Below, in pieces: positions 8,626-60,931 of a stretch of DNA of 64,000 nt. This DNA is from Candidatus Sungiibacteriota bacterium (GTDB lineage Bacteria > Patescibacteriota > Minisyncoccia > Sungbacterales > HO2-52-23). The position numbers were made by a program, and so were the translations under genes. Every line of letters starts with the position of its first letter. Positions within the stretch are counted from its first letter, which is position 1. The notes under the pieces were generated by a model. The model was not told where the DNA came from. It saw only the letters and a program-made list of their open reading frames with translations, and did no database searches. Where the stretch lies: contig JACPBG010000001.1 in NCBI GenBank assembly GCA_016180435.1, positions 8,358 through 72,357 on the forward strand. The letters run 5' to 3'.

Positions 8626-8689
8626 TTAAAAATCCGAAGGAAGTCCGACTTCAATAATACCTATTGAAGTCGGACTTCAGAGCATTAAC

Positions 8690-9991
8690 ATGGCAATAGG
8701 AGATATTTTGGCGTATATACAGGCAAACGAAAAGACGTTTTCGCGGGAAACGCTTATTTCGCAATTGCGCAAATCCGGCTATCCGGAAGAAGAAATTCAG
8801 GCGGCGCTGAATTTGAAGTATTCAGCTGCTGATTCGGCTCCGGCGGCATCAATGGTTTCGGCAAAACCCGCGTGGAAAAAAATTCTGGCTTGGATTGGCG
8901 GGTTTTTTGTTGGCGGTATTGTATTCTGGATTCTTAGCACCATATTTGCGGGAGTTATTTTCGGACTTGCATACCGCGGCAATGCATCAATAATGAATTA
9001 TCCTATAGTATTTTTTGTCGCTGCAGCAGTTATTTTTACTGTCGCAATTTTTATTTTTATCCTCATACGCGCGCGTTATCCCCATTTTTCTTACGGTTTA
9101 TTGACCGCCACAATTATTTTTGCCCTGGTTTTTATCGGTAGCGTCATACTTTATTCTATCGTGTTTCAAAGTTTGGATTCAGCGCGGGGAAAAGCCCGCG
9201 ATGCGCGCCGAGTTGCGGATGTCAAACAATTGCAGTTAGCCCTTGAACTTTATTATGATGCCAATGGCGGCTATCCTGAAAATTTAGAATTACTTCAGCC
9301 CAAATTTATACCAACAATTCCTCGCGATCCAACCACCGGAATCGAATATATATATGAAAAGCGTCCAGACGGAAGTTATTATATGGCCGCAACACTTGAA
9401 GATTCTGAAAATTATGCGTTGCGCAATGATTTTAATATTGGAAATCAATTATATGAGGTTTCAGAAAGTCCTGGAGTGGTTTTTGATAAAAAACAGTTAC
9501 AACAAGGTGGCGATTCGGGATATGCTTTAAGTGGCCGTCCCTGGGGTCCGGAGCAGGCAACCGGTGCGCCGAATTCTCCGGCATCTTTGGGAGATCATCC
9601 GACGGCCTGGGCTTCGCTTACCGAGGATAATCAGGATGAATGGCTGCTTTTAACATATGAAAAATCTATTCCGGTTTCAGCTATTTTGGTTTATGAAAGC
9701 TATAATCCGGGCGCCTTGCGGCAAATTGACCAGGTTTCCGGAGAGCGCGTATACACATTGTGGAAAGGCGGGGATCCGGTTCAGGCATTGAAAGACGGAC
9801 GTTATGTCGCGCGCATTAAACTTAAGCAGCCGATCACGTTGAGTCAGATCCGGCTTGAAATAAAGTCCACTGAAATTCGCGGATGGAACGAAATAGACGC
9901 CGTGGGGGTGGAAGAGGCCAATGGGACGATTCATTGGGCTACGCGGGCGGAATCAAGCAGCACATATGCTGAACCAAATCCCGGTGGATAA
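8690..9991 (+). CDS. Polytopic membrane protein with an internal pseudopilin (GspG / type IV pilin)-like globular domain and a C-terminal domain of unknown function
   Basis: Four predicted TM helices, then ARGKARDARRVADVKQLQLALELYYDANGGYPENL...IPRDPTTG resembling the GspG core (..DMYKLDNGRYP...LPKDPWG). Confidence 0.45.
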   Translation: MAIGDILAYIQANEKTFSRETLISQLRKSGYPEEEIQAALNLKYSAADSAPAASMVSAKPAWKKILAWIGGFFVGGIVFWILSTIFAGVIFGLAYRGNASIMNYPIVFFVAAAVIFTVAIFIFILIRARYPHFSYGLLTATIIFALVFIGSVILYSIVFQSLDSARGKARDARRVADVKQLQLALELYYDANGGYPENLELLQPKFIPTIPRDPTTGIEYIYEKRPDGSYYMAATLEDSENYALRNDFNIGNQLYEVSESPGVVFDKKQLQQGGDSGYALSGRPWGPEQATGAPNSPASLGDHPTAWASLTEDNQDEWLLLTYEKSIPVSAILVYESYNPGALRQIDQVSGERVYTLWKGGDPVQALKDGRYVARIKLKQPITLSQIRLEIKSTEIRGWNEIDAVGVEEANGTIHWATRAESSSTYAEPNPGG

Positions 9992-46853: not shown

Positions 46854-48740
46854 ATGAATCAAAAAATGGTTGGGTGGATTGCTGCGGTTTTTTTATTTTT
46901 CAGTTCAGTATCAATTCAAGCTCAACGCGTAATTGAAGTTTTTGGTACATATGGAGGAACTTCTGTCCGCTTGGCAAACGAGGAAATCTTTGATGTCAGA
47001 CCGGGAGAAACGCGTTTTTTCCATTCCGATTTGCCCGCAACGCTATCCACGCGAGCTGAATCATTGGGTTGGCAGAAGCGAACCGTAAATCCTGAATGGG
47101 ATATAAAAATTTCATTCAGAGAACTGGATCCGACTAAACCGGAACGTTTGTTTTGTATCGCGGCTTTAATCGGAAAACGCAACAGAAACGGGAAAGTTTT
47201 GTTGTTTTCGCCTGAATTGTTTGAGAGAACATATCCAGGAAGGCCTCCGATATATTATTTGTCATCCGTATTGCGATCCAAGGGTTTTGATGTTCTTACG
47301 GTGGACGTGGATATAGTTGGGCGGAAGAAATTTATAAAACTGTTGCGCGACTTTAAGCCAGATATAATCGGCGGAACTTCTTTATCAGTCCAAATCAATG
47401 AAGCGATGAGTTTAATGGAGTTGGCAAAACGGGAATGTCCGCGTGTGATAACTATACTTGGTGGTAATCACGCAACAGCTGCCGGTGAATATCTTTACCC
47501 AATCCATGCGTCCTATCTTGATGCGGTGGTCGTGGGAGAAGGTCTTACGACGATTGAATTTATCGCCGGCGCAGTTAAGGGAAGAAAATGGGACTCGGTC
47601 CGAAATGAAATACCCGGATTACTGCAGTGGGATGGAAATAGAATAATTCGAAATAAGCCGGCTCTCGCGGAGGACCCCAATAAATTTTCTCCGGACTTTC
47701 CGTATCATCCCACATACAATTTCCCGATTTTTAATCTGGACAATGGAACTCCACGTAAGACGTTTCAGGCCATGACGGCTTTTGGTTGTCAAAACGCCTG
47801 CTTCTTTTGCTTCAGTTCAACTAATCTGCGTGGCGAGGCAACAAGGGTGGAACGGCGCATGAGTTTGAGTTCGGTTGAGGCAATTCTCCGACGGGCTTCG
47901 GAACAGGGGTATGAAGCCGTCTACATTGATGACGACACATTCACGCGAGATCGCGAACACGCGCTTGAAGTTACTCGTCTCTGTAAAAAGTACAACTTGA
48001 TTTTTGGTTGCCATACCAGGCCGGATTGCGAAGATGAATCACTTATCCGCGAATTCGCCGCCAATGGCTGCCGCTATATGTTCAGCGGCTTTGAGACCAT
48101 TGTCCCCGAAATCCTTAAGGGAGCCAACAAAACGCATGACCCGATTGGTTATCGTGATGCATACCTGCGATCCTATCGCCTTAAAAACGAAACTGGTATT
48201 CTTGTTTCGGCCTATTTGATTCATGGAATGCCGCGGGTGGTGAATGACAACCGGGTCAGGTATGAAATTGATACTTTAGAGGACAGCCGGGCCTCCATTG
48301 AATTTGCAGTTCGTGAGTTAAATCCAACCTACTTATCCATGAATGTATTGAGGTTCTTGCCAGATGTGCCGTTTTCTTTCGCCCGTCAGTTTGACTTTCT
48401 TCGTCCGATTTCCGGTCCTCTTCATGGAGGATATTGGGACAAAAAATGGCTGGAAGCGAATGATAAAAAAGACCCTCGATGTTTTCATCCCATCCTTCGT
48501 GCCTTTGAGGGCAGTGGATCCGCGATTCCGGTCCATATGACACCGGAACGGTGTTATAAGATTCTTCAAAATGCGGTTGAAATTGTGAATCGGAAAAACG
48601 CGGAAGCGGGGCGGAACCAAACAATAATCGTGGTAGACCCATGGTTTGAGGAACGGTTCCTGCACGCTGATTATTCAGGTGGAATCCGGACCCACTATCT
48701 TGCGCCTTTCGAGACGATTGAGATGACCAAATCAATCTAA
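46854..48740 (+). CDS. B12-binding radical SAM protein with an N-terminal hydrophobic, signal/anchor-like segment
   Basis: B12-binding domain DVLTVDVDIVG...PDIIGGTSLS...ILGGNHATAA; radical SAM cluster motif CQNACFFC (Cx3Cx2C). Confidence 0.7.
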   Translation: MNQKMVGWIAAVFLFFSSVSIQAQRVIEVFGTYGGTSVRLANEEIFDVRPGETRFFHSDLPATLSTRAESLGWQKRTVNPEWDIKISFRELDPTKPERLFCIAALIGKRNRNGKVLLFSPELFERTYPGRPPIYYLSSVLRSKGFDVLTVDVDIVGRKKFIKLLRDFKPDIIGGTSLSVQINEAMSLMELAKRECPRVITILGGNHATAAGEYLYPIHASYLDAVVVGEGLTTIEFIAGAVKGRKWDSVRNEIPGLLQWDGNRIIRNKPALAEDPNKFSPDFPYHPTYNFPIFNLDNGTPRKTFQAMTAFGCQNACFFCFSSTNLRGEATRVERRMSLSSVEAILRRASEQGYEAVYIDDDTFTRDREHALEVTRLCKKYNLIFGCHTRPDCEDESLIREFAANGCRYMFSGFETIVPEILKGANKTHDPIGYRDAYLRSYRLKNETGILVSAYLIHGMPRVVNDNRVRYEIDTLEDSRASIEFAVRELNPTYLSMNVLRFLPDVPFSFARQFDFLRPISGPLHGGYWDKKWLEANDKKDPRCFHPILRAFEGSGSAIPVHMTPERCYKILQNAVEIVNRKNAEAGRNQTIIVVDPWFEERFLHADYSGGIRTHYLAPFETIEMTKSI

Positions 48741-48784: not shown

Positions 48785-49516
48785 TTATTTAATCTCTTTA
48801 AGAAATCCTTCAACGAGTTTTACCGTTTCATCCGTGCTTTGGAACACCGATTTCCAGATCACCACAATATCCGCATCGTTGAATATGGATCGCTGAACTT
48901 CGCGGATAGTATCTCCTCCGGCAATTGAAATCATAATGTCATAATTTCCCTTGATGCGCCGGATTTCGTGAAGCGGGATTTGTTTTTCCCGGTTAAATTG
49001 TTCCTCATCCACGCCGCGGTGTAAAATTACCACCTGCGGTATTTTTTTAAGCGCGCGCAAAACAGTTAACGGAAATTCCACGTTCATCATGTCAAGCATG
49101 GCGTCAATCCCGCGTGCTTCGCAATCCGCCATAAACGCATTAAGGGTTTCAATGGGCGCGCTTCCCAAGGCAATGGCAGCGCTTGCTCCGGCATCTGCCG
49201 CAAGTTCAACCTCGGTTTCACCCCGATCCATGGTTTTTAGATCCGCGACCACATACGGCAAAATTCCGCTTCCCTCCAAATGCTCGGCATACCACTGATA
49301 AATTTGCCTGATTCCGCCGGCGCCATAGCGTTTAATAAGCGGAGTGCCGGCTTCCACAATTATACGATCACTCAAAGGCAATTGTTCTATAATTCCTTTG
49401 GCATCTGCCAGCGTGTTATTTAGGGCAATTTGCAAATAGCGTTTTTTGCGGTCCAATATTGATTTAGTTCGATGGCTCATATCTGTAATATTATCACAAC
49501 CCTTGTTTTGCGTCAT
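48785..49516 (-). CDS. 3-hexulose-6-phosphate synthase-like (orotidine-5'-phosphate-decarboxylase fold)
   Basis: YLQIALN..., IIVEAGTPLIKRYG, VVADLKTMDRG: HPS signatures. Confidence 0.65.
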   Translation of the reverse strand: MTQNKGCDNITDMSHRTKSILDRKKRYLQIALNNTLADAKGIIEQLPLSDRIIVEAGTPLIKRYGAGGIRQIYQWYAEHLEGSGILPYVVADLKTMDRGETEVELAADAGASAAIALGSAPIETLNAFMADCEARGIDAMLDMMNVEFPLTVLRALKKIPQVVILHRGVDEEQFNREKQIPLHEIRRIKGNYDIMISIAGGDTIREVQRSIFNDADIVVIWKSVFQSTDETVKLVEGFLKEIK

Positions 49517-49552
49517 TAGGTGCCAAATATCGGTGCTTCATAAGCATATACA

Positions 49553-49592
49553 AAAAACATTCCAATATTCTCAAGAATATTAGAATGTTTTT
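49553..49592. terminator. Bidirectional terminator hairpin AAACATTCCAATATTCT-CAAG-AGAATATTAGAATGTTT flanked by A-run and T-run
   Basis: Read directly; one mismatch in the stem. Confidence 0.6.
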
Positions 49593-49614
49593 GATACCGA
49601 AAAAATCGCAAACG

Positions 49615-50670
49615 TTAGATAACCAGTAACCGGGAAAGTGTCAGGGTGTTGGCGAAATAAACACTTCCGGCTAAAAGAAGCAAAAGAAGCGCAGCATAGG
49701 CGATATGGCGCGGATGGCGTTTTTCAATTTCCAAAAACAGGGTTAGCATAAGGGAGAAAAAAATCAGTCCACCGAGTATTATATATATGGCGTAGGTTAT
49801 ATGGCGCGGCGAGGTGAAAAGTTTTTCAAGAAGTGTTGCCTTGCCCTCCAAACTTTCTTTTGAAAGTTGGGAGGGTAAAAGCCCCGGAGCGGGAATTTTC
49901 GATTCCGGCTCGGTATTTGCCACCTCCGTATTTTTTACAGCCACAAACATATTATTTTCCTCAATGGTTTCAAGATGTGCTGCGGCAACCGTCTGCGTGG
50001 TTACCGGAGACGGGGGAATGGCAGGTCGGGGCGGCTTGCCCTCCAAACTTTCTTTTGAAAGTTGGGGGGGTGAAGGCGCAGGTTTTGATGCCGGAGGGAC
50101 TTGTGAAACAAATGCGACAGTCTGAACCGGCCTCCCGAACATCTGCACCACGAAAATCGTATCACGGCCCTGATATGTGCCCCGAGCCGTGGCAATTCCG
50201 ATTTCGGTAAAGTTGCCATTCAGGATATTGGCTCTATGTCCGGGAGAATTCATCCAGGCGCGCTCAACATCGATTGAGTCCGTAAAATTAACCGCCAGAT
50301 TTTCTCCGGCATAACTGAAGCGATACCCGGTCTCTCCAAACCAATACCAGGGCGATTTTCCGTCAGGCGAGGTATGAGCAAAATATCCTTGGGCTGCCAT
50401 ATCCAGGGCTTTGCGTCGTGCCGTTTCTTCCAGTATCGGATTTACGGTCAATGAAGGAAGGGAGGAGGTTTGCCTGTCAACATTGGCAAGTTCCACTAAA
50501 ACCTTGGGAAGTATGAGCGCGTAAAAATCGCCGGTGCGGAATAAAAACGGGAGGAAAAAAAGCATCACGATGATCACGGCAAGCATAAAAACGCTCGGTT
50601 CGCCAAAAATATGCGGACGAAATTTATTTTCCGCATGCGGTATAAAATATTTTTTTAAGTATTTTTTCAC
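49615..50670 (-). CDS. CAP/SCP (PR-1-like, YkwD-family) domain protein with N-terminal TM helices and an internal 31-bp in-frame duplication
   Basis: YFAHTSPDG...GENLA...NSPGHRANILNGNFTEIGIA; duplicated peptide LSKESLEGK. Confidence 0.7.
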   Translation of the reverse strand: MKKYLKKYFIPHAENKFRPHIFGEPSVFMLAVIIVMLFFLPFLFRTGDFYALILPKVLVELANVDRQTSSLPSLTVNPILEETARRKALDMAAQGYFAHTSPDGKSPWYWFGETGYRFSYAGENLAVNFTDSIDVERAWMNSPGHRANILNGNFTEIGIATARGTYQGRDTIFVVQMFGRPVQTVAFVSQVPPASKPAPSPPQLSKESLEGKPPRPAIPPSPVTTQTVAAAHLETIEENNMFVAVKNTEVANTEPESKIPAPGLLPSQLSKESLEGKATLLEKLFTSPRHITYAIYIILGGLIFFSLMLTLFLEIEKRHPRHIAYAALLLLLLAGSVYFANTLTLSRLLVI

Positions 50671-50785
50671 CCTTTAATTATATCACATTTCTTGGTTAAA
50701 ATCAAATTCCCGCGTATATACGCGGGAATTTTGCTGATTTTAATAAACCAAGTTTCCAATTGGAAACTTGGTTTATTAATTATAT

Positions 50786-51988
50786 TTACGGAAGAGTTCG
50801 CCTGCGATATGATCGGAAAATTAGCATAATGATAAGCAGGATTGCAATACCGATAAGCGTCCACACCCATCCTGATATTTTAATACCCGACGAAATCACT
50901 TGGGCGGTTTCTGCCGCGGCTGTATTCTGATTTTTTGTCCCTATGCTGGCAGTTTCTCCTTCCTCATTTATTGAAGAACCCGCCGCTTCATCCATAATCG
51001 TTTCGCCCGCTGTTTCGGCACTGGCAATACTTTCCGTTTCTCCCGTAATACTTTGCCCGGCCACCATCGGTTCGCCCGTTCCGGTTTCTTCGCCTATGAC
51101 GGAAACCCCGCCGTTAATTGTTGATGCGCCCGGAGGTTTTGTCCCGGAAGTAGTAAAGCTTTGTTCAAAACTCACCGTATCGGGAGACGCGTGAGAAATT
51201 GTACGGTAGTAATACGTTGTTCCGGGCAAAAGGCCGGTTAGAACAACCGAATGGAATGTAACGCCGCTAAGTGAAGCTGGAGTGTCAAATTCCGGTGTTG
51301 AAAAAGCATATCCGTAATTGGGGGATATGGAAAAATTGAAAGTTCCTGAAATCGTGTCATATATCACTCGGCTGGTTGAGATAAAACTTGTAAGCCAGGT
51401 TATCGTTGCCGTGGTTTCTCCGACAGATACATCCCGTTCGTTATTAATGACAAGGCCTTGAATTCCACTACCTCCGCCGCCGCCACCTCCGCCACCGCCC
51501 CCTCCCGCCTCTTCTTCGCCGCCGCCTTCATCACCGTTAAATCCGATAAGAATATCAAAACCAAGTGATTTTTCCTGATAGGAATTATTTGCGCCCGGAA
51601 CAAATCGCACCAAGAAATCATATTGCGTTTGGGCGCCCCCGCCCGCAAGATCCGAGAGAGATATTTCTCCGGCGGTCAAAAATTCCGCAAGCGTTGTGGT
51701 CGCGTAGCGTAAAATCCCGTTTTCGTATATTCCGATTTCAAAAACATCGGCTAGCCCGTCCGGGTCGCTTTCGTTTATCGCTTCCACAATGATCGTTTTG
51801 GAGTCCGGCGTATTATTTTTTACTTTTGCCCACCGGTTTACTTCCGATCCCGGCAGAAAATTGGCCTCGTTAAAAAGCGGGGTTGCCTCAAATGTAACCT
51901 CCAAATCATCCGGGGCCGCCAAGACAGCCGGAGCCCACAAAAGCGCGGTTATTACGAATATCAAATTGTATTTTATGTATTTCTTCAT
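50786..51988 (-). CDS. Secreted surface protein: Sec signal peptide, Gly13 tract, FN3-like domain, Thr/Glu-rich spacer, C-terminal TM anchor
   Basis: Signal peptide MKKYIKYNLIFVITALLWAPAVLA; GGGGGGGGGGGGS; TATITWLT...TTYYYR; C-terminal WVWTLIGIAILLIIMLIFRSYRRR. Confidence 0.5.
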   Translation of the reverse strand: MKKYIKYNLIFVITALLWAPAVLAAPDDLEVTFEATPLFNEANFLPGSEVNRWAKVKNNTPDSKTIIVEAINESDPDGLADVFEIGIYENGILRYATTTLAEFLTAGEISLSDLAGGGAQTQYDFLVRFVPGANNSYQEKSLGFDILIGFNGDEGGGEEEAGGGGGGGGGGGGSGIQGLVINNERDVSVGETTATITWLTSFISTSRVIYDTISGTFNFSISPNYGYAFSTPEFDTPASLSGVTFHSVVLTGLLPGTTYYYRTISHASPDTVSFEQSFTTSGTKPPGASTINGGVSVIGEETGTGEPMVAGQSITGETESIASAETAGETIMDEAAGSSINEEGETASIGTKNQNTAAAETAQVISSGIKISGWVWTLIGIAILLIIMLIFRSYRRRTLP

Positions 51989-53859
51989 ATGTTTGCTTGC
52001 CCCGTTAGACTTGCCCCGTTGGGAGCTTGCTCTCCTATGGGGTCTTCTCCGGAAGGTTCTAGGGGGGGTTCTTCTTGGGGCGGCTCAATTATTTCTACTG
52101 GTTCAGGTGCCTCAATTGCTTCTTCTATTAGCGGAGGAAGTTCATTCACCGTGTCCTCCGGTTCAGCCGGAGAAGTTTCTTCCGGAGTTGAAGTTGTTTC
52201 AATTGTCTCCGGCTCTTTGGCATTTTCTTCTTCGGGTATAATAGCCTCGGCTTCGGATTCGCTGGCATCCGCTGGCGTATCGTTGTTTTCATCAGTCGGT
52301 AAAACCGCCTCTTCCGCAGCCGGTTCTTCCGTCAGCAGGGTTTCCTCTGTCGGCAAAGTATCTTCCGTTGTTACTATTTCCTCCGTATCTTCCGGAGGTA
52401 TTACGGTTTCTTCTCCCGCCGTTGGGATCGATTCATCTGTTATCGGCTCGGTTGTAATTTCTTCATCGGGTATCCTGGTTTCAGTCACTGGTTCGGTCGT
52501 TGTTGATTGAGTTTCCGGCAAATCCCCGGTTAGAATTATGACGTTATCGGGCAACGGCTCGCTATCCTCAGCGGCCTCCTCTAAAATAATTGCCGGCGTT
52601 GAAGAATTATCAATTTTATTCATCCGTCCCGGAGTCGGGATCGGGTCAACCCAGTCGCCGATGCCGTCCGGAATTCGCGCGTATGACTTGTTGGGCGGAA
52701 CGCCGCCGCACTCACCCGACGCATCGGTGGAATTTTCATCACCGGGACTTGGCTCAATTTCACAAAAATCATTGTCTTCGTATTCATACGAGTCCATCAA
52801 TACATTATCACTATTAAACAGTCGCACCGTATCTCCGGTATTGTTAAGAATCGGCTTATTCATATAGATAACCAGCCAGCTTTTGCCTCCGATAATGGTT
52901 GTAGCGGGCGCTGTATTCAGCGCGGTGATAACTACTTTATTGCCCTCGCCGTCAGTAGCATCTCGGGTGTACCAGCCGGCCACATCTATTGGCTCGGTGC
53001 TGTTGTTGTAAATTTCAATCCATTCTCCTTGCGGCATATCGCTTGCGTCATTGCCAAAATCAAATCCATAAGCAACGCCGTCCGGCCTTGGCAAGAATTC
53101 ATTTAATACCACCATCCTGGCCGTGATAATAAAGCTCATTCTTTCCTCATCCGTAAATCCTCCGGCGCCATAAGAAGCGACATTGGTTTGCCATCCTTTG
53201 AATACAATGTCAAACCGGCATTCCGCTCCGTTAGTGAAAGAATCTTCGTCCACCGGCAGTTCAATGTTGAATTTCCAAGTCCCCAAAGCAGTTAAAGCGG
53301 AAGTAGCAAGCGACATCAAATCGCCCTCATATTTCTCAACTCCGTTTAATTTCGCCTGAATATTAAGCGCGTCGCAAAAATCATCTTCGTCAGAAATTTC
53401 TTCGGCGCCCAGAGTGTATTGGAAGTCCATTCCGCCGCTGTTAAGCAAAACCGAACTTTTGGAAACGGTTTCGTCCAGGCCTATGGATCCTTCATATTCA
53501 TAAGAGCTTAGGGCAAAATCAAGCGAAGCGGCGGTAAAAATGTTATTGGATGACCCCTCGGTGTCGCTGTAATAAGCCAGGGTTTGTCCTATCGCGAAAA
53601 GGCCGGTCCAATTCAAGGAAAATATAAGAAGCAATGCCACGCTCTTAAATAGCGGGGCTATTTGCAGGGCGCCGGTTTCTTGTTTCGGGATTCTTTTTAC
53701 TCCGTTAGAACGCCGCCGACTCTGTGGGCGGTAAAGTATAGAATAAGCTTGGGGGAGTATAATGCTCTCATAAATGGGTCGTGAAGCATCCGTTCTAACG
53801 GGGCTTATCGGTATCCGGATTGAACCGTCTTTTAATTTTTTAAACGCGATTTTTTTCAT
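51985..53859 (-). CDS. Large secreted protein with a SipW-cognate-type N-terminal region, a lamin-tail domain (LTD) and a long acidic Thr/Glu/Pro-rich C-terminal tail
   Basis: TasA-class leader LAYYSDTEGSSNNIFTAASLDFAL; LTD: VLNEFLPRPDGVAYGFDFGNDASDMPQGEWIEIYNNSTEPIDVAGWYTRD; the predicted N-terminus overlaps repeat B2, so the true start is uncertain. Confidence 0.6.
   Translation of the reverse strand: MKKIAFKKLKDGSIRIPISPVRTDASRPIYESIILPQAYSILYRPQSRRRSNGVKRIPKQETGALQIAPLFKSVALLLIFSLNWTGLFAIGQTLAYYSDTEGSSNNIFTAASLDFALSSYEYEGSIGLDETVSKSSVLLNSGGMDFQYTLGAEEISDEDDFCDALNIQAKLNGVEKYEGDLMSLATSALTALGTWKFNIELPVDEDSFTNGAECRFDIVFKGWQTNVASYGAGGFTDEERMSFIITARMVVLNEFLPRPDGVAYGFDFGNDASDMPQGEWIEIYNNSTEPIDVAGWYTRDATDGEGNKVVITALNTAPATTIIGGKSWLVIYMNKPILNNTGDTVRLFNSDNVLMDSYEYEDNDFCEIEPSPGDENSTDASGECGGVPPNKSYARIPDGIGDWVDPIPTPGRMNKIDNSSTPAIILEEAAEDSEPLPDNVIILTGDLPETQSTTTEPVTETRIPDEEITTEPITDESIPTAGEETVIPPEDTEEIVTTEDTLPTEETLLTEEPAAEEAVLPTDENNDTPADASESEAEAIIPEEENAKEPETIETTSTPEETSPAEPEDTVNELPPLIEEAIEAPEPVEIIEPPQEEPPLEPSGEDPIGEQAPNGASLTGQANI
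53702..53803. repeat. Family B element, copy B2. Inverted repeat CCGTTAGAACG / CGTTCTAACGG; shared 5' GAACGCCGCCGACT; internal GGGGGAGTATAATGCTC
   Basis: Read directly; lies at the 5' end of the LTD-protein ORF. Confidence 0.7.
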
Positions 53860-53861
53860 GA

Positions 53862-54416
53862 TTACTCGCTTGCTATTTCTAATGTTTTATTCTTTTTGGC
53901 TTTTTTAATCTCCTCCCATATTTTTTGGGTTTGATCCCAGACAATAATCAGGGCCGGAATAATAATCAGCGCCAAAAATCCGTAAGTCGTGCGCGCGGTT
54001 TCAATCGCATACCCCAGATACGGGATGCTCAAATACACTTTACCTATGACCTGATTTTGCAGAACTTCTCGGGTGTCTTGTTCTTCGTTGGCGTCTCCTT
54101 TGGTGATATATATCGGATTGCCTCGCTCCACCCGCATTTCAACGATCCGGTGGGTAGTCGGCACTTTCTGCCCTTTCGCGTTTTTGAAATTTCCGTTAAA
54201 AGTAAGCACATCTCCGATTTCGTAAGACGAGGCCGATTTAATTAGCACAACGCTTCCGGTTTTTATGGCGGGCTCCATTGAACCGGAACTCACTACCCGG
54301 AATTGATACATCCCCGGAATAGGGAACGCGGAAATTACGATAATCAAAGCTATAGCCGCCAGCGCCGCCGTAAAAATATAGTATCCGTATGTTCCTAATT
54401 GTTTTATTTTTGCCAT
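53862..54416 (-). CDS. sipW: Signal peptidase I, SipW/Sec11 (archaeal/ER) type
   Basis: Catalytic VVSSGSMEPAI; THRIVE (His); ITKGDAN; N- and C-terminal TM helices. Confidence 0.75.
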   Translation of the reverse strand: MAKIKQLGTYGYYIFTAALAAIALIIVISAFPIPGMYQFRVVSSGSMEPAIKTGSVVLIKSASSYEIGDVLTFNGNFKNAKGQKVPTTHRIVEMRVERGNPIYITKGDANEEQDTREVLQNQVIGKVYLSIPYLGYAIETARTTYGFLALIIIPALIIVWDQTQKIWEEIKKAKKNKTLEIASE

Positions 54417-54652
54417 TACGTCTCTAATTTTAGGAGGTCGGACCTCCCGGAATTTCGCAGTGTTATTGAGGTCCGACCTCTAAATATTTGCAAAATACTA
54501 ACGGGATTACATTTCAAGGGCTTTAATCCCGCTCTTGAAAAATCCTATGCGTTTAAACTTTTTGAAATTCTTTAAGGCCTTTATTACTCCGCCTTTTGTC
54601 ACAAGCAAAAAGCGAAGCAAAAAGGACTCAATTTCGTGCGGGGCAAGTCGCT

Positions 54653-55456
54653 TTAATCAAAATCCGGATCACCGAGTTCAACATCCGCGCATTTGAAATT
54701 CGGATTGTTGCGGACCTGTTCCGCGTAAAGCACCACATCCGCGCTGAACGAATCGGTCTGCGCGTCATCCTGCACGCCGGAACCATCACACGAAATTGCT
54801 CCGGTGTCGTGGTTTACGGTTTGCGTGCCAACACACCACGCCATTCCGATGTTGCGCGTTGCCGCGGGGCCGGTAGGCGAAAGCGGGTCGGTGCCGGACT
54901 GCGAGTCAGCAATATCAAGATCGTAGAAGACGTCAAAGAATGAGAGCAAATCAAAATCAGGATCGCCCTGAATTTTTAGTGGTTTTTCGTCGTCATCCGG
55001 ATCATACGTTCCGTCCGAATCGTCGTCCTGCCAGCCGAAGACATGGATATACTTTGAGAGTTCTCCTTTGTCTTCGGTGTCATCGCCCGCATCTCCTTCC
55101 GCGTCATTCAGATCGTGCTCATCATCTTCTTTGTTCGTTACCAAAAGACAAGCCCAGGCCGGATTGTCATCCGCGTGCAAGCTGATATGGCGAGTGCCAT
55201 AATCCCCGGGCTTAATGTCTTCAAAAGTGAAAAACTTTTGATTCGTCAAATTCCGTGAAGTCCACGCCGTACCTTGTACTTCAACATCCTGTCCGTTGTA
55301 AGTCGCGCCAAAACTGTCCACCTTAAGATCAATAGACCCCGCAGTAAACACGTTTCCGGTTGAGGTCTCGGTGTCGTTGAAGAATGCTATGGTGGCGCCG
55401 GTTACCAAGGCGGCAATGGCCACCACCATAGATCCGCTAATAATAATTTTTTTCAT
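54653..55456 (-). CDS. TasA/camelysin-family secreted protein with a SipW-cognate signal peptide (acidic)
   Basis: MKKIIISGSMVVAIAALVTGATIAFFNDTETSTGNVFTAGSIDLKVD; IKPGDYGTRHISL; C-terminal SADVVLYAEQ. Confidence 0.7.
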   Translation of the reverse strand: MKKIIISGSMVVAIAALVTGATIAFFNDTETSTGNVFTAGSIDLKVDSFGATYNGQDVEVQGTAWTSRNLTNQKFFTFEDIKPGDYGTRHISLHADDNPAWACLLVTNKEDDEHDLNDAEGDAGDDTEDKGELSKYIHVFGWQDDDSDGTYDPDDDEKPLKIQGDPDFDLLSFFDVFYDLDIADSQSGTDPLSPTGPAATRNIGMAWCVGTQTVNHDTGAISCDGSGVQDDAQTDSFSADVVLYAEQVRNNPNFKCADVELGDPDFD

Positions 55457-55483
55457 GGTTGTGTTTAATTAACCAAGAAAAGA

Positions 55484-56419
55484 TTAGTCAACCTCAAACG
55501 GATCAGGGTTATTTCTGTGCTGTTCAACCTCAAACGTAACATCTCCGGACAAGCTGTCGGTTTGAACATCGTTACCTGTGGTCAAAGGAAGTTCCCAGGC
55601 AAGACCCAAATAATAGGTTGTTGAACCAACCATTCGGCCGTCTGCGGCTAAACCATGGCAAACGCCATAGTCATTGTGGCCGTCAGCATTTACTTCATCG
55701 TCATCTGCTAAATCTGCACAGGAATCTTCGTCATCCACGGACGCATTATATGCGCCTATCAAAACTTCAGAAAGTTCAAGCTCTGAACTCAAGCTCCACG
55801 GATGTCCCTCAACGCCATTCAAAACATTGTCTCCTTCCTCTTCGTCGTCGCAGTCAGGTACTGGAACTCCTGCCGCATTAACACATTGAAATCCAGGCAC
55901 TGATCCCTGATCAAGCCACATAGAGAAGTGAGGAAGCATTGCTCCCAAGAGTTCTCCGTCACCATCGGGGTCGCAATTCGCTTCTGCCTCTGTTTCAGGT
56001 TCAGTGCAAGAGTTATCCGCGCTAACCATTCTGCCCATCAAAATTCTTCCCCACGCATCGTTGTCATAAACATGAAGAGAAATTGTGTCTTCTCCTTTGT
56101 CTCCCGGTTTAATGTCCGTGAAAGAAAAGAATTTGTGAACACCGTCAACTAAATCACTTTCTCGCCATTGACCAACGCCAACGCCAGCCGCATTAACTTC
56201 TCCGCAACCAACATCTACATAACCATTGTCATCAGCGCCTTCGACATCCCCCACATAATTGTAATAATGACACTCACTGTCCACTTTCAAATCAATCGCT
56301 CCGGCGGTGAAAGTATTGCCGGTGGAGGTTTCGGTGTCCGAGAAGAAGGCCGTGGTGGCTCCCACCACAACCGCGGCCACTGCCGCGATAACTGACAAAC
56401 TTAATATAATCTTTTTCAT
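55484..56419 (-). CDS. TasA/camelysin-family secreted protein with a SipW-cognate signal peptide (paralog)
   Basis: MKKIILSLSVIAAVAAVVVGATTAFFSDTETSTGNTFTAGAIDLKVD; IKPGDKGEDTISL; C-terminal SGDVTFEVEQ. Confidence 0.7.
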   Translation of the reverse strand: MKKIILSLSVIAAVAAVVVGATTAFFSDTETSTGNTFTAGAIDLKVDSECHYYNYVGDVEGADDNGYVDVGCGEVNAAGVGVGQWRESDLVDGVHKFFSFTDIKPGDKGEDTISLHVYDNDAWGRILMGRMVSADNSCTEPETEAEANCDPDGDGELLGAMLPHFSMWLDQGSVPGFQCVNAAGVPVPDCDDEEEGDNVLNGVEGHPWSLSSELELSEVLIGAYNASVDDEDSCADLADDDEVNADGHNDYGVCHGLAADGRMVGSTTYYLGLAWELPLTTGNDVQTDSLSGDVTFEVEQHRNNPDPFEVD

Positions 56420-56783
56420 AATAATAAAAGCAGTTATTTAGTGTTTTTCAGTTAGTTTATACCCCATACCGTATGGCACGGGAGCTATTACGCCCGTGCG
56501 CCATTTGGCACAGGGCCTACTCTCTGAAAAACAGTTTTAGTTTATAATGATTTTCTACCCACACTGAACATAATTCAGATCTTAATTAGTGTGGGGGTTT
56601 CCCGGCATCGACCTTTCCCTCCTAAAAACCCAGGCGTAATCCCTCTATATTATTAAAAGGATTACGCCTGCGTTCCAAGTCATATCTATTAAGATTGGGT
56701 ACATCTTATCATACAACAGTAATGAAGTCAAGCATGCGCTCGCTTATGCGGTATTCGGGCATTGTAATTTCAGACACGATTCG

Positions 56784-57413
56784 TTAAAGAGTGGTATGAT
56801 CTGTCGGACTTTTAACTTCGGAAGATGATTTTCCCATCACCAGCTCCAGTAACTGGTTTTTTTGGGTTATAACTCCGCCGAGCACCAGTATAGCCGCCAG
56901 GAATATTACTACATAGTATATGCTGTTTTGATATAACAATCCACCAAAATAATAAAACAAGAAAAGTCCGGGTGCGGAACCGATCAAGGATGATAAGAAA
57001 AATTTCCAGGAACTCATGCGGGTAAGTCCCGCGGCGTAACTTATGTAATCAAACAAGGAATTGGTGCAAAGGCGCAGCACCACCATGCCCCAGAATTTTT
57101 TCTTTTCGGAAAGCGTTGATTCCCATTGTTCAATTTTTTCCAAAGATGCGATCCGGCGCACTACCGGTTCGCGGAAATAGCGCGCGATCCAAAATGCCAG
57201 CATAGCGCCCAGCATTATGCCCGCCTCCCCATATATAAATCCCCAAACCCAGCCGAATGCCAAAAGTCCGGCAATATCAAAAATCGCACCCGGGATCGGC
57301 GGAATAATAATGGATAGGGGACGGAGCAGAATAAAGATCAGCGGCGCCAAAACCGGGTTATTATTCAGCATGGAGACAAGCATTTCCTGCATGCTATATA
57401 ATGGTATCATCAT
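56784..57413 (-). CDS. DedA/TVP38 (VTT-domain) family membrane protein
   Basis: Conserved glycine motif region ...FDYISYAAGLTRMSSWKFFLSSLIGSAPG... Confidence 0.65.
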   Translation of the reverse strand: MMIPLYSMQEMLVSMLNNNPVLAPLIFILLRPLSIIIPPIPGAIFDIAGLLAFGWVWGFIYGEAGIMLGAMLAFWIARYFREPVVRRIASLEKIEQWESTLSEKKKFWGMVVLRLCTNSLFDYISYAAGLTRMSSWKFFLSSLIGSAPGLFLFYYFGGLLYQNSIYYVVIFLAAILVLGGVITQKNQLLELVMGKSSSEVKSPTDHTTL

Positions 57414-57488
57414 CCATCCGCTTGTAAAACTGCCCGGATCGTAATAAACTTAAAAATAATCTGAAGTTCTTTGTCATACGGGGGTTAA

Positions 57489-58346
57489 ATGGCTCCGGCC
57501 GAGTCAGAGATTATTCGCTGGCGCGTATTTTTAATTGTGGCTCGGGCCTGGTTGGCGTTGATCATTGCCTTAGCGCTTTTAACATTATTGTTGGTTAATA
57601 TTGTTTCCGTAACTAAATTATCCTCGGCCTATGCGTGGCTTGCCGGATGTATAATTTTCTTGCATCACGCGAAATGCATTATAGCTGAACGAATTGGTTT
57701 GTCTCGATACTCCCGGAATATTCCCGAAAAAATAATGGCCGAATTCAGATACGTAAAAGAGAAAAGCGGAATTTCATATTCAATACCAATTTATATGAAG
57801 CCGGATAGTGTCGCACGAGCAGCGATTTATGGATTCGGGATCCCATATATATCGGCAGTGACGGTTTCTACCGGTATTTGCAATATTACGCCGCATGAAT
57901 GGCGGGGGGTTTTTGCGCATGAATTTGCGCACATAAAAATCATGAACTCGTACGGAATATTATCATTAACGCTGCTCATTAAACTTCTTTCTATTTATTG
58001 CGGAATTTTTTGGGTTACTGAAATTCTGGAATTTTATGATGACTATGCTTTAGCCACAGTGTGTGCCATAATTTTTCTTTATTATATAAACCCGCTGCTT
58101 TTAGCGGTTCTCAATTATGGTATTAGTTTTCCCATAAATCGCCGATTTGAATATGCGGCCGACGCCTTTGGCGCATACATTCTGGGATCAGCCGATCACG
58201 TCATTGATGTCTTAAAGATTTTTAAAAAGATCAATCATGGCGGCGGTGCGGAAAACTCACCCGGATTTATACCCGCAGAAATTACGCACCCGTCTTTGGA
58301 TAAGCGCATATCTGCGCTGGAGAAACTAAAAACTAAGCCGTCTTGA
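57489..58346 (+). CDS. Membrane-embedded HExxH zinc metalloprotease (M48/M56-like)
   Basis: FAHEFAHIK within a polytopic membrane protein. Confidence 0.5.
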   Translation: MAPAESEIIRWRVFLIVARAWLALIIALALLTLLLVNIVSVTKLSSAYAWLAGCIIFLHHAKCIIAERIGLSRYSRNIPEKIMAEFRYVKEKSGISYSIPIYMKPDSVARAAIYGFGIPYISAVTVSTGICNITPHEWRGVFAHEFAHIKIMNSYGILSLTLLIKLLSIYCGIFWVTEILEFYDDYALATVCAIIFLYYINPLLLAVLNYGISFPINRRFEYAADAFGAYILGSADHVIDVLKIFKKINHGGGAENSPGFIPAEITHPSLDKRISALEKLKTKPS

Positions 58347-60775: not shown

Positions 60776-60931
60776 TTTTTTAGGGTTTATCCCCGCACCA
60801 AATATTTGGTGCGGGGATAAATTACGGAGTATTCTATCATCTTATGCTTACCAGCGACCGCTGGTAAGCATAAGATGATAAGTTGTAGTAAGATGATAAG
60901 TTGTAGAATGTTGGATAAAAAATGAGCAGAG

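Follow-up and report, generated by a model that had tools for sequence, protein, structure and literature searches.

The fibres of Bacillus subtilis TasA assemble through donor-strand exchange (PMC9674648, PMC10151520); the donor strand is N-terminal, comprising residues 28-38 right behind the cleavage site (PMC9674648). Loci that combine a subunit, a signal peptidase I (SPase I), a tip or adhesin and a membrane anchor have been reported for other TasA-superfamily filaments in archaea and bacteria, and they carry a dedicated TIGR02228-type peptidase (bioRxiv 10.64898/2026.01.04.697558). In this work, we analyzed a minus-strand cassette of five genes, T1-T2-sipW-T3-P400 (50786-56419), within a stretch of contig JACPBG010000001.1; this whole stretch of 64,000 nucleotides is referred to as the 64-kb window. 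Like the tapA-sipW-tasA operon of B. subtilis, the cassette encodes a dedicated peptidase of the endoplasmic reticulum (ER)/archaeal type beside its substrates (PMC9674648, PMC10151520). The cassette is real, and we consider it likely that it codes for a cell-anchored TasA-superfamily extracellular filament in Candidatus Sungbacteria, which belong to the Parcubacteria group of the Patescibacteria, which also go by the name Candidate Phyla Radiation (CPR).

The genes are tightly arranged. A gap of 2 nt separates sipW from T3, the T3 stop and the P400 start overlap by 4 nt, and terminator-like hairpins at 56631-56670 and 50704-50779 bracket all five genes. A six-frame regular-expression scan of the window located the SipW-type leader in the T1, T2 and T3 open reading frames (ORFs) and nowhere else. 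An earlier note on this DNA, made from the letters alone, had placed T1, T2, sipW and the gene of a lamin-tail-domain (LTD) protein, here called T3, on the minus strand, and the coordinates that it gave for all four proved exact. It had also taken the genome to be CPR-like. This assignment is borne out by T3, which is 100% identical to a protein from a metagenome-assembled genome (MAG) annotated as 'lamin tail domain-containing protein [Candidatus Sungbacteria bacterium]'.

Subunits, peptidase and accessory proteins

The T1 and T2 products are paralogs with 35% identity (E 9e-24). Both score above the 19-bit cut-off of TIGR04088, the model of the SipW-cognate leader (30.6 and 32.5 bits), as the earlier note had anticipated from their N-termini. 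Both also pass the 22.5-bit cut-off of PF12389 (Peptidase_M73), with 26.0 bits for residues 6-49 of T1 and 28.3 bits for residues 14-94 of T2, these matches being confined to the N-terminal 50-90 residues. Cleavage by SipW is predicted past residue 24 in T1, between ATTA and FFSDTE, and at A24/F25 in T2, between ATIA and FFNDTE. From residue 25 on, 22% of the residues are acidic and the isoelectric point is near 4, in agreement with the description of these proteins as highly acidic. T1 contains eight cysteines and T2 four conserved ones.

T2 has 695 close homologs, chiefly in Patescibacteria MAGs, some of which are already labelled 'TasA family protein' or 'SipW-dependent-type signal peptide-containing protein'. 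An exhaustive profile search collected 4223 clusters at 50% identity. The family alignment (A1) retains four conserved cysteines and a nearly invariant AFFNDTETSxGNxFTAGxIDL directly past the hydrophobic core. Within the segment that corresponds to the TasA donor strand, D28, E30, T31, S32 and N35 (T2 numbering) are invariant. Further invariant polar residues are D47, S48, N54, D80, K82, D85, H94, N98 and E120, followed by D184, Q233, D235, Q247, R249 and N251. Together with the four cysteines, such residues could provide calcium sites or inter-subunit cross-links, both of which have been reported for other TasA-superfamily filaments. In two related loci (L006:2978-3751 and L007:1991-2764), the public T2 gene calls begin at an internal methionine and are 257 aa long; because of this start they lose MKKIIISGS of the leader, and the 267-aa form agrees with the homologs.

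Sequence profiles connect the N-terminal part of the T family with TasA. The alignment of the Bacillus TasA family was rebuilt from a query 99% identical to annotated B. subtilis TasA. A comparison of A1 with this family using hhalign gave 97.3% (E 2.4e-11), limited to TasA residues 2-85, a region that comprises the leader, the donor strand and the first core strands. The TasA cleavage site A27/A28 aligns with A24/F25 of T2, and the TasA donor strand 28-38 with T2 residues 25-36. In this profile alignment, the conserved segment FFNDTETSTGNVFTAG, directly past the predicted cleavage site, lines up with the TasA donor strand. A plain hidden Markov model (HMM) search of PDB sequences with T1, T2 and the A1 profile returned no TasA match, and the TasA link for the rest of the T domain consequently rests on fold. 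Predicted structures of T1 and T2 have a jelly-roll/β-sandwich fold like that of TasA; the TasA fibre is their top match, with moderate scores, and several donor-strand filaments are among the best matches. T1 and T2 are thus acidic, cysteine-containing β-sandwich proteins related to TasA by sequence profile and fold, and their earlier placement in the TasA class holds. The earlier note had further read the C-terminal strands shared by T1 and T2 as a sign of donor-strand subunits. The two proteins do have this strand in common, but it belongs to the core and does not speak for donor-strand exchange; the TasA donor strand is N-terminal, and the relevant element is the post-cleavage segment.

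The peptidase passes the 51.85-bit cut-off of TIGR02228 (archaeal/ER-type SPase I) with 99.8 bits and remains, at 24.7 bits, under the cut-off of 47 for the bacterial LepB-type model TIGR02227. NF046067 (SipW-Bacillus) is its top-scoring family, yet the score of 111.7 bits is under the equivalog cut-off of 190; the protein therefore counts as a SipW-like enzyme and, by the NCBI criterion, as no ortholog of Bacillus SipW. The motifs SGSMEP (residues 44-49, with Ser46), HRIV (89-92, with His89) and GDAN (at 107) lie in register with the catalytic motifs of human SEC11A/C (E 1e-6). In this alignment they are of the Ser and His type rather than a Ser-Lys dyad. The Ser/His signatures named in the earlier note are hence in place, and the TIGR02228 score and the SEC11A/C alignment put the enzyme in the SipW/Sec11 clade to which it had been assigned. 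Hydrophobic segments are found near both ends (7-39 and 140-163). By these models and motifs, SipW is an ER/archaeal-type Ser-His SPase I.

T3 is the third substrate and differs from the subunits in its layout. It begins with a Lys/Arg-rich basic extension (residues 1-65) whose length is very variable among homologs. A shorter protein without this extension was considered and ruled out, since no alternative start codon is present upstream of the hydrophobic segment. The extension is followed by this hydrophobic segment (about 68-90), the leader and donor-strand motif (87-113), a small β-sandwich at about 110-250 modelled with pLDDT above 90, and the lamin-tail domain at 250-361, which scores 48.4 bits against PF00932 (cut-off 34.3 bits) and has an Ig-like fold. 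The acidic tail that the earlier note put at about 190 aa spans 200 aa (425-624) and is rich in Glu, Pro and Thr, with 61 D/E, 29 P and 28 T against 2 K/R. The leader motif reaches 17.5 bits with TIGR04088, slightly under 19, and in hhalign the leader and first strands of the T3 family (A2) match those of the T family at 98.1%. T3 can accordingly be kept as a third cognate substrate, as first proposed; the proposed 'KKI' does not stand next to the hydrophobic segment, because the leader motif sits behind the 65-aa extension, and the term 'giant' is an overstatement for a protein of 624 aa. LTD is the only Pfam match of T3 and TIGR04088 the only one in NCBIfam, with no TapA model among them. 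T3 is thus a leader and strand on a small TasA-related β-sandwich, followed by the LTD and the acidic tail, and it is a candidate tip or adhesin. It resembles TapA as a larger second substrate that shares the N-terminal strand, and this likeness is restricted to the leader and donor-strand segment.

P400 starts with an ordinary Sec signal and a conserved β-sandwich N-domain. A Gly-rich linker leads to an FN3-like domain (37 bits against Pfam Pur_ac_phosph_N) and a low-complexity region, and the protein ends in a C-terminal transmembrane segment and a basic tail; its hydrophobic segments are at 5-27 and 367-396. The single sequence gave nothing in hhalign against the T and T3 families, and the link emerged only with the P400 family alignment (A3), whose N-domain is homologous to that of the T3 family (96.6%, E 6e-10). 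The match of A3 to Bacillus TasA begins at TasA residue 40, just beyond the donor strand. For this reason P400 looks like a TasA-related domain that lacks a donor strand and is tethered to the membrane. It is a conserved fifth member of the cassette and probably its membrane anchor.

Conservation across Patescibacteria

Related loci were collected by scanning one genome per species (GTDB), which gave 474 loci with T-family relatives. Of these 80 were kept, almost all from Patescibacteria MAGs. A sipW homolog stands directly behind one to five T-family genes in 72 of the 80. T3-type genes occur in 60, directly behind sipW in the loci listed, and the LTD is present in 18. P400 homologs are found in 27 loci, behind T3 in nearly all. 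Three closer relatives (L089, L090 and L091) keep the order T1-T2-sipW-T3-P400 next to unrelated flanking genes, indicating that the five genes move together.

In addition, sipW and the T3-type gene form a single ORF in 10 of the 80 loci (Table 1), which argues for a functional link between the two genes. In the fusions, the peptidase domain is followed by its C-terminal transmembrane segment, a basic linker, a second hydrophobic segment and the leader motif. Such a topology would place the active site and the cleavage site both outside the cell.

The transcription unit has a probable end at the tandem perfect hairpins past P400, which have stems of 18 bp and 12 bp. The earlier note had let the same strand continue into an FN3/Gly-rich protein and a CAP-domain protein. 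The first of these is P400 and belongs to the cassette. The CAP gene was considered as an operon member and rejected: it lies near a T-family locus in only 10 of the 80 loci, and it is set apart by the terminator-like hairpins and by a promoter-like site of its own (TTGATT-17-TATAAT, 10/12 matches, at 50705-50677). Its product, of the CAP/YkwD family, has three hydrophobic segments, one near the N-terminus and two C-terminal, and a repeated 'PSQLSKESLEGK' segment. The minus-strand island is flanked by a gene (46854-48740, plus strand) whose product, a B12-binding radical SAM protein, is predicted to have a signal-like segment at its N-terminus, and by a gene of the 3-hexulose-6-phosphate synthase/OMP-decarboxylase family (48785-49516, minus strand).

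Table 1. Positions of the cassette genes, neighbouring elements and sipW-T3 fusions. Fusion positions are given as locus:position.
Feature	Position	Strand	Description
T1	55484-56419	minus	311 aa ORF, TasA-superfamily subunit paralog
T2	54653-55456	minus	267 aa ORF, TasA-superfamily subunit paralog
sipW	53862-54416	minus	184 aa ORF, ER/archaeal-type signal peptidase I
T3 (LTD protein)	51985-53859	minus	624 aa ORF, third SipW-type substrate
P400	50786-51988	minus	400 aa ORF, candidate membrane anchor
CAP-domain protein	49615-50670	minus	351 aa ORF, neighbour gene
Conserved two-tier RNA hairpin	54570-54631	minus	directly 3' of the last subunit gene, T2
Two exact palindromes	54434-54480	strand-neutral	between T2 and sipW
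Two tandem perfect hairpins	50704-50779	minus	just past the P400 stop
sipW-T3 fusion ORFs (first five)	L021:10138-11682, L027:10737-12188, L030:8398-10104, L045:11773-13338, L046:11442-13010		
sipW-T3 fusion ORFs (other five)	L050:11362-12816, L057:10958-13153, L076:7340-8389, L080:8240-9844, L087:10839-12329		

Proposed filament assembly and intercistronic hairpins

A working model can be drawn from these proteins. SipW would cleave the leaders of T1, T2 and T3 and so free their N-terminal strands, after which T1 and T2 would polymerise through donor-strand exchange like TasA. T3 would donate its strand to cap or nucleate the distal end and, much as TapA does, would present its LTD and its acidic tail as an adhesin. 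P400 would accept a strand and, being unable to donate one, would hold the proximal end at the membrane. At the RNA level, a hairpin past the last subunit gene may lower downstream expression, either by partial termination or by serving as a site of processing and stabilisation, with the outcome that the subunit would be in excess over the peptidase, tip and anchor. The polarity of the filament and the mode of action of the hairpin are the weakest steps of the model.

Several results weigh against this interpretation. We infer donor-strand exchange by homology only. T3 falls just under the TIGR04088 cut-off, its long basic extension might leave it uncleaved and membrane-bound, and its N-domain matches generic Ig-like folds only. 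The P400 family is weakly matched to Bacillus TasA (53.6%) and reaches only 11.6% against the T family. Nor does the hairpin have a U-tract, and the gap is too short for it in about half of the related loci (median gap 35 nt).

In the strongest alternative, T1, T2 and T3 do not polymerise and are surface or secreted proteins, such as monomeric matrix, adhesin or calcium-binding wall components, with SipW acting merely as their leader peptidase and the resemblance to TasA amounting to a shared β-sandwich and leader. Sequence similarity to TasA is indeed confined to the N-terminal third, fold similarity is moderate, and the T3 N-domain matches only generic Ig-like folds. We nevertheless regard this alternative as unlikely. 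The counterpart of the TasA donor strand, with its five invariant residues, is the most conserved part of T1, T2 and T3, and several donor-strand filaments rank high among the fold matches. Moreover, two to five paralogous subunit genes with a tip-like and an anchor-like gene make up a typical filament locus. The filament interpretation remains preferred.

The hairpin of the model is a 62-nt element (54570-54631) immediately beyond the T2 stop codon. It has two tiers, a conserved outer frame and a variable inner stem, and can be written as UUGAAGYCUUUU, a variable GC-rich stem with a loop that is often CUUGUGA, and AUAAAGGCUUCAA. RNAalifold assigned 21 pairs with compensatory changes at 16, and such changes also occur among close relatives. 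The window has a single strong match to a covariance model (R1), at 66.1 bits (E 7e-13). Across about 1 Mb of related loci the model gave 27 sense-strand matches, all beside T-family genes (for example L013:7772-7833, L062:9009-9070 and L084:6132-6193). Twenty-five of them lie 0-50 nt past a T-family stop; the remaining two stand ahead of a T gene, and no ORF was found upstream of them. In 18 of the 27 cases sipW comes next, and in nine a further T-family gene does. Paired cells make up 92.9% of the hairpin alignment; shuffles reach 73.6%, and sliding the partners gives no more than 61%. These counts lean towards the structure because the alignment had been fitted to the R1 model. An Rfam scan of 49000-58000 with E up to 1 produced sub-threshold chance matches only, leaving the hairpin without an Rfam match. 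The hairpin is specific to the 3' ends of T-family genes and covaries.

The earlier note had proposed an attenuator giving excess subunit over peptidase, and had located it in two perfect palindromes within 54417-54652. The palindromes are exact, as reported (GAGGTCGGACCTC at 54434-54446 and GAGGTCCGACCTC at 54468-54480), and they pair with one another in a 13-bp perfect stem with a 21-nt loop that ends 17 nt ahead of the sipW ATG. A search for the palindrome motif with two mismatches allowed gave 5 matches, against 0.48 expected by chance. A subunit-favouring intercistronic hairpin fits the covarying element past T2, and the palindromes are not the conserved element. Even so, they might work as an attenuator or operator by which the ratio of subunit to peptidase is set, with GAGGTCSGACCTC as a putative regulator site. 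Taken as a whole, the T2-sipW spacer has a much better fold than its shuffled versions (z -5.1), and each palindrome half is itself palindromic, which is common for operators of dimeric proteins. We judge such a function improbable on several counts. The palindromes fall in about 140 nt that are absent from all five aligned relatives (L089, L090, L091, L013 and L010), where the conserved hairpin runs straight into sipW; in this comparison they appear to be lineage-specific. There is no U-tract at the palindromes and no minus-strand promoter-like site in the spacer. A similar hairpin stands ahead of the gene at 8690, which is unrelated, and with 15 perfect hairpins with stems of at least 11 bp in the window, the palindrome pair looks like part of a genome-wide class of intergenic hairpins. 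An internal promoter ahead of sipW was also considered, and a consensus scan of the minus strand of the spacer gave no site.

Other hairpins of the window were recorded alongside. The one near 8690 occupies 8640-8678 on the plus strand, between a PfkB-family kinase gene and an ORF without a Pfam match. It is a 17-bp perfect hairpin (GAAGTCCGACTTCAATA...TATTGAAGTCGGACTTC) 11 nt ahead of the ATG, similar to the palindrome pair before sipW but for G>A and C>T changes that are paired, which points to a small family of such hairpins between genes of this genome. Tandem pairs of long perfect hairpins, with stems of 12-21 bp and 4-nt loops, stand at gene ends at 50704-50779 and 60786-60880. These may be the usual terminators of this genome, most of them without a clear U-tract.

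The last alternative, that T1 and T2 are secreted metalloproteases of the camelysin type (Peptidase_M73) and not structural proteins, can draw on the name of the Pfam family that they match and on the invariance of His94, several Asp/Glu and other polar residues in the T family, but it is very hard to credit, as the match covers just the leader and first strands (6-49 and 14-94), no HExxH motif is visible in T1 or T2, and, among solved relatives, the one that agrees best in fold is a structural fibre.

Comparison with known systems

While this kind of system is already known, its well-conserved version in the CPR, which are ultrasmall symbiotic bacteria, is so far unstudied. The core finding is confirmatory rather than surprising, because public databases already annotate the family, and its occurrence in Patescibacteria has appeared in print. 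Literature searches for the cassette, the sipW-T3 fusions or the hairpin in CPR retrieved only a one-line mention of PF12389 homologs in Patescibacteria (PMC9245690).

The finding bears on how these organisms attach. Attachment to other microbes is the way of life of all cultivated CPR/Patescibacteria cells (PMC12206443), and type IV pili are the appendages studied for CPR attachment in the literature found. With its tip and anchor candidates, the cassette is a second candidate for surface attachment or matrix formation in Patescibacteria, and it extends the TasA-superfamily design of subunit, dedicated signal peptidase, tip and anchor to another major lineage. A more far-reaching reading, which we offer tentatively and with more doubt than confidence, is that the cassette is a phylum-wide, self-contained unit of Patescibacteria for an anchored, LTD-tipped donor-strand filament, a second attachment organelle besides type IV pili, with the subunit ratio set by an RNA motif and with some peptidases cutting themselves from a fused substrate. 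If true, the LTD-tipped filament would be an organelle used for contact with hosts or surfaces, and the RNA motif would be previously undescribed. The sipW-substrate fusions and the hairpin at the subunit 3' ends provide concrete experimental handles.

At the RNA level, parallels exist in unrelated systems. Intercistronic hairpins follow the major-subunit genes in chaperone-usher pilus operons such as pap and occur likewise in the puf operon. The cassette shares with them a stable stem-loop between an abundant structural gene and the assembly genes, which would give differential expression in one operon. Unlike those of pap and puf, its hairpin lacks a U-tract and keeps a sequence frame across a phylum-level group.

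The architecture of the Bacillus tapA-sipW-tasA module, to which the earlier note had likened the locus, is matched in part. A dedicated peptidase stands beside cognate substrates in both, and the SipW-type leader runs straight into a donor-strand segment and a β-sandwich subunit, as in TasA. The gene order differs: the cassette is arranged as subunits, sipW and accessory gene, with two subunit paralogs. In place of TapA, whose model the LTD protein does not match, the accessory protein T3 has an LTD and an acidic tail, and the cassette adds a membrane-anchored fifth protein, P400. The T subunits are very acidic with conserved cysteines, unlike Bacillus TasA, and their mature domains show no similarity to it detectable by plain HMM search.

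The TasA-superfamily filaments of archaea and other bacteria provide the second comparison, namely the AbpA/AbpB bundling pili, Tafi pili, AbpX, Sulfolobus threads and cannulae (PMC9245690, bioRxiv 10.64898/2026.01.04.697558). From all of these the cassette differs by its phylum, Patescibacteria. Its peptidase has two hydrophobic segments, whereas ten transmembrane helices are reported for AbpX loci, and no DUF5305 accessory protein was seen in it. Compared with these archaeal and bacterial loci, the cassette is further distinguished by a candidate tip with a lamin-tail domain and by the conserved RNA hairpin behind its subunit genes.

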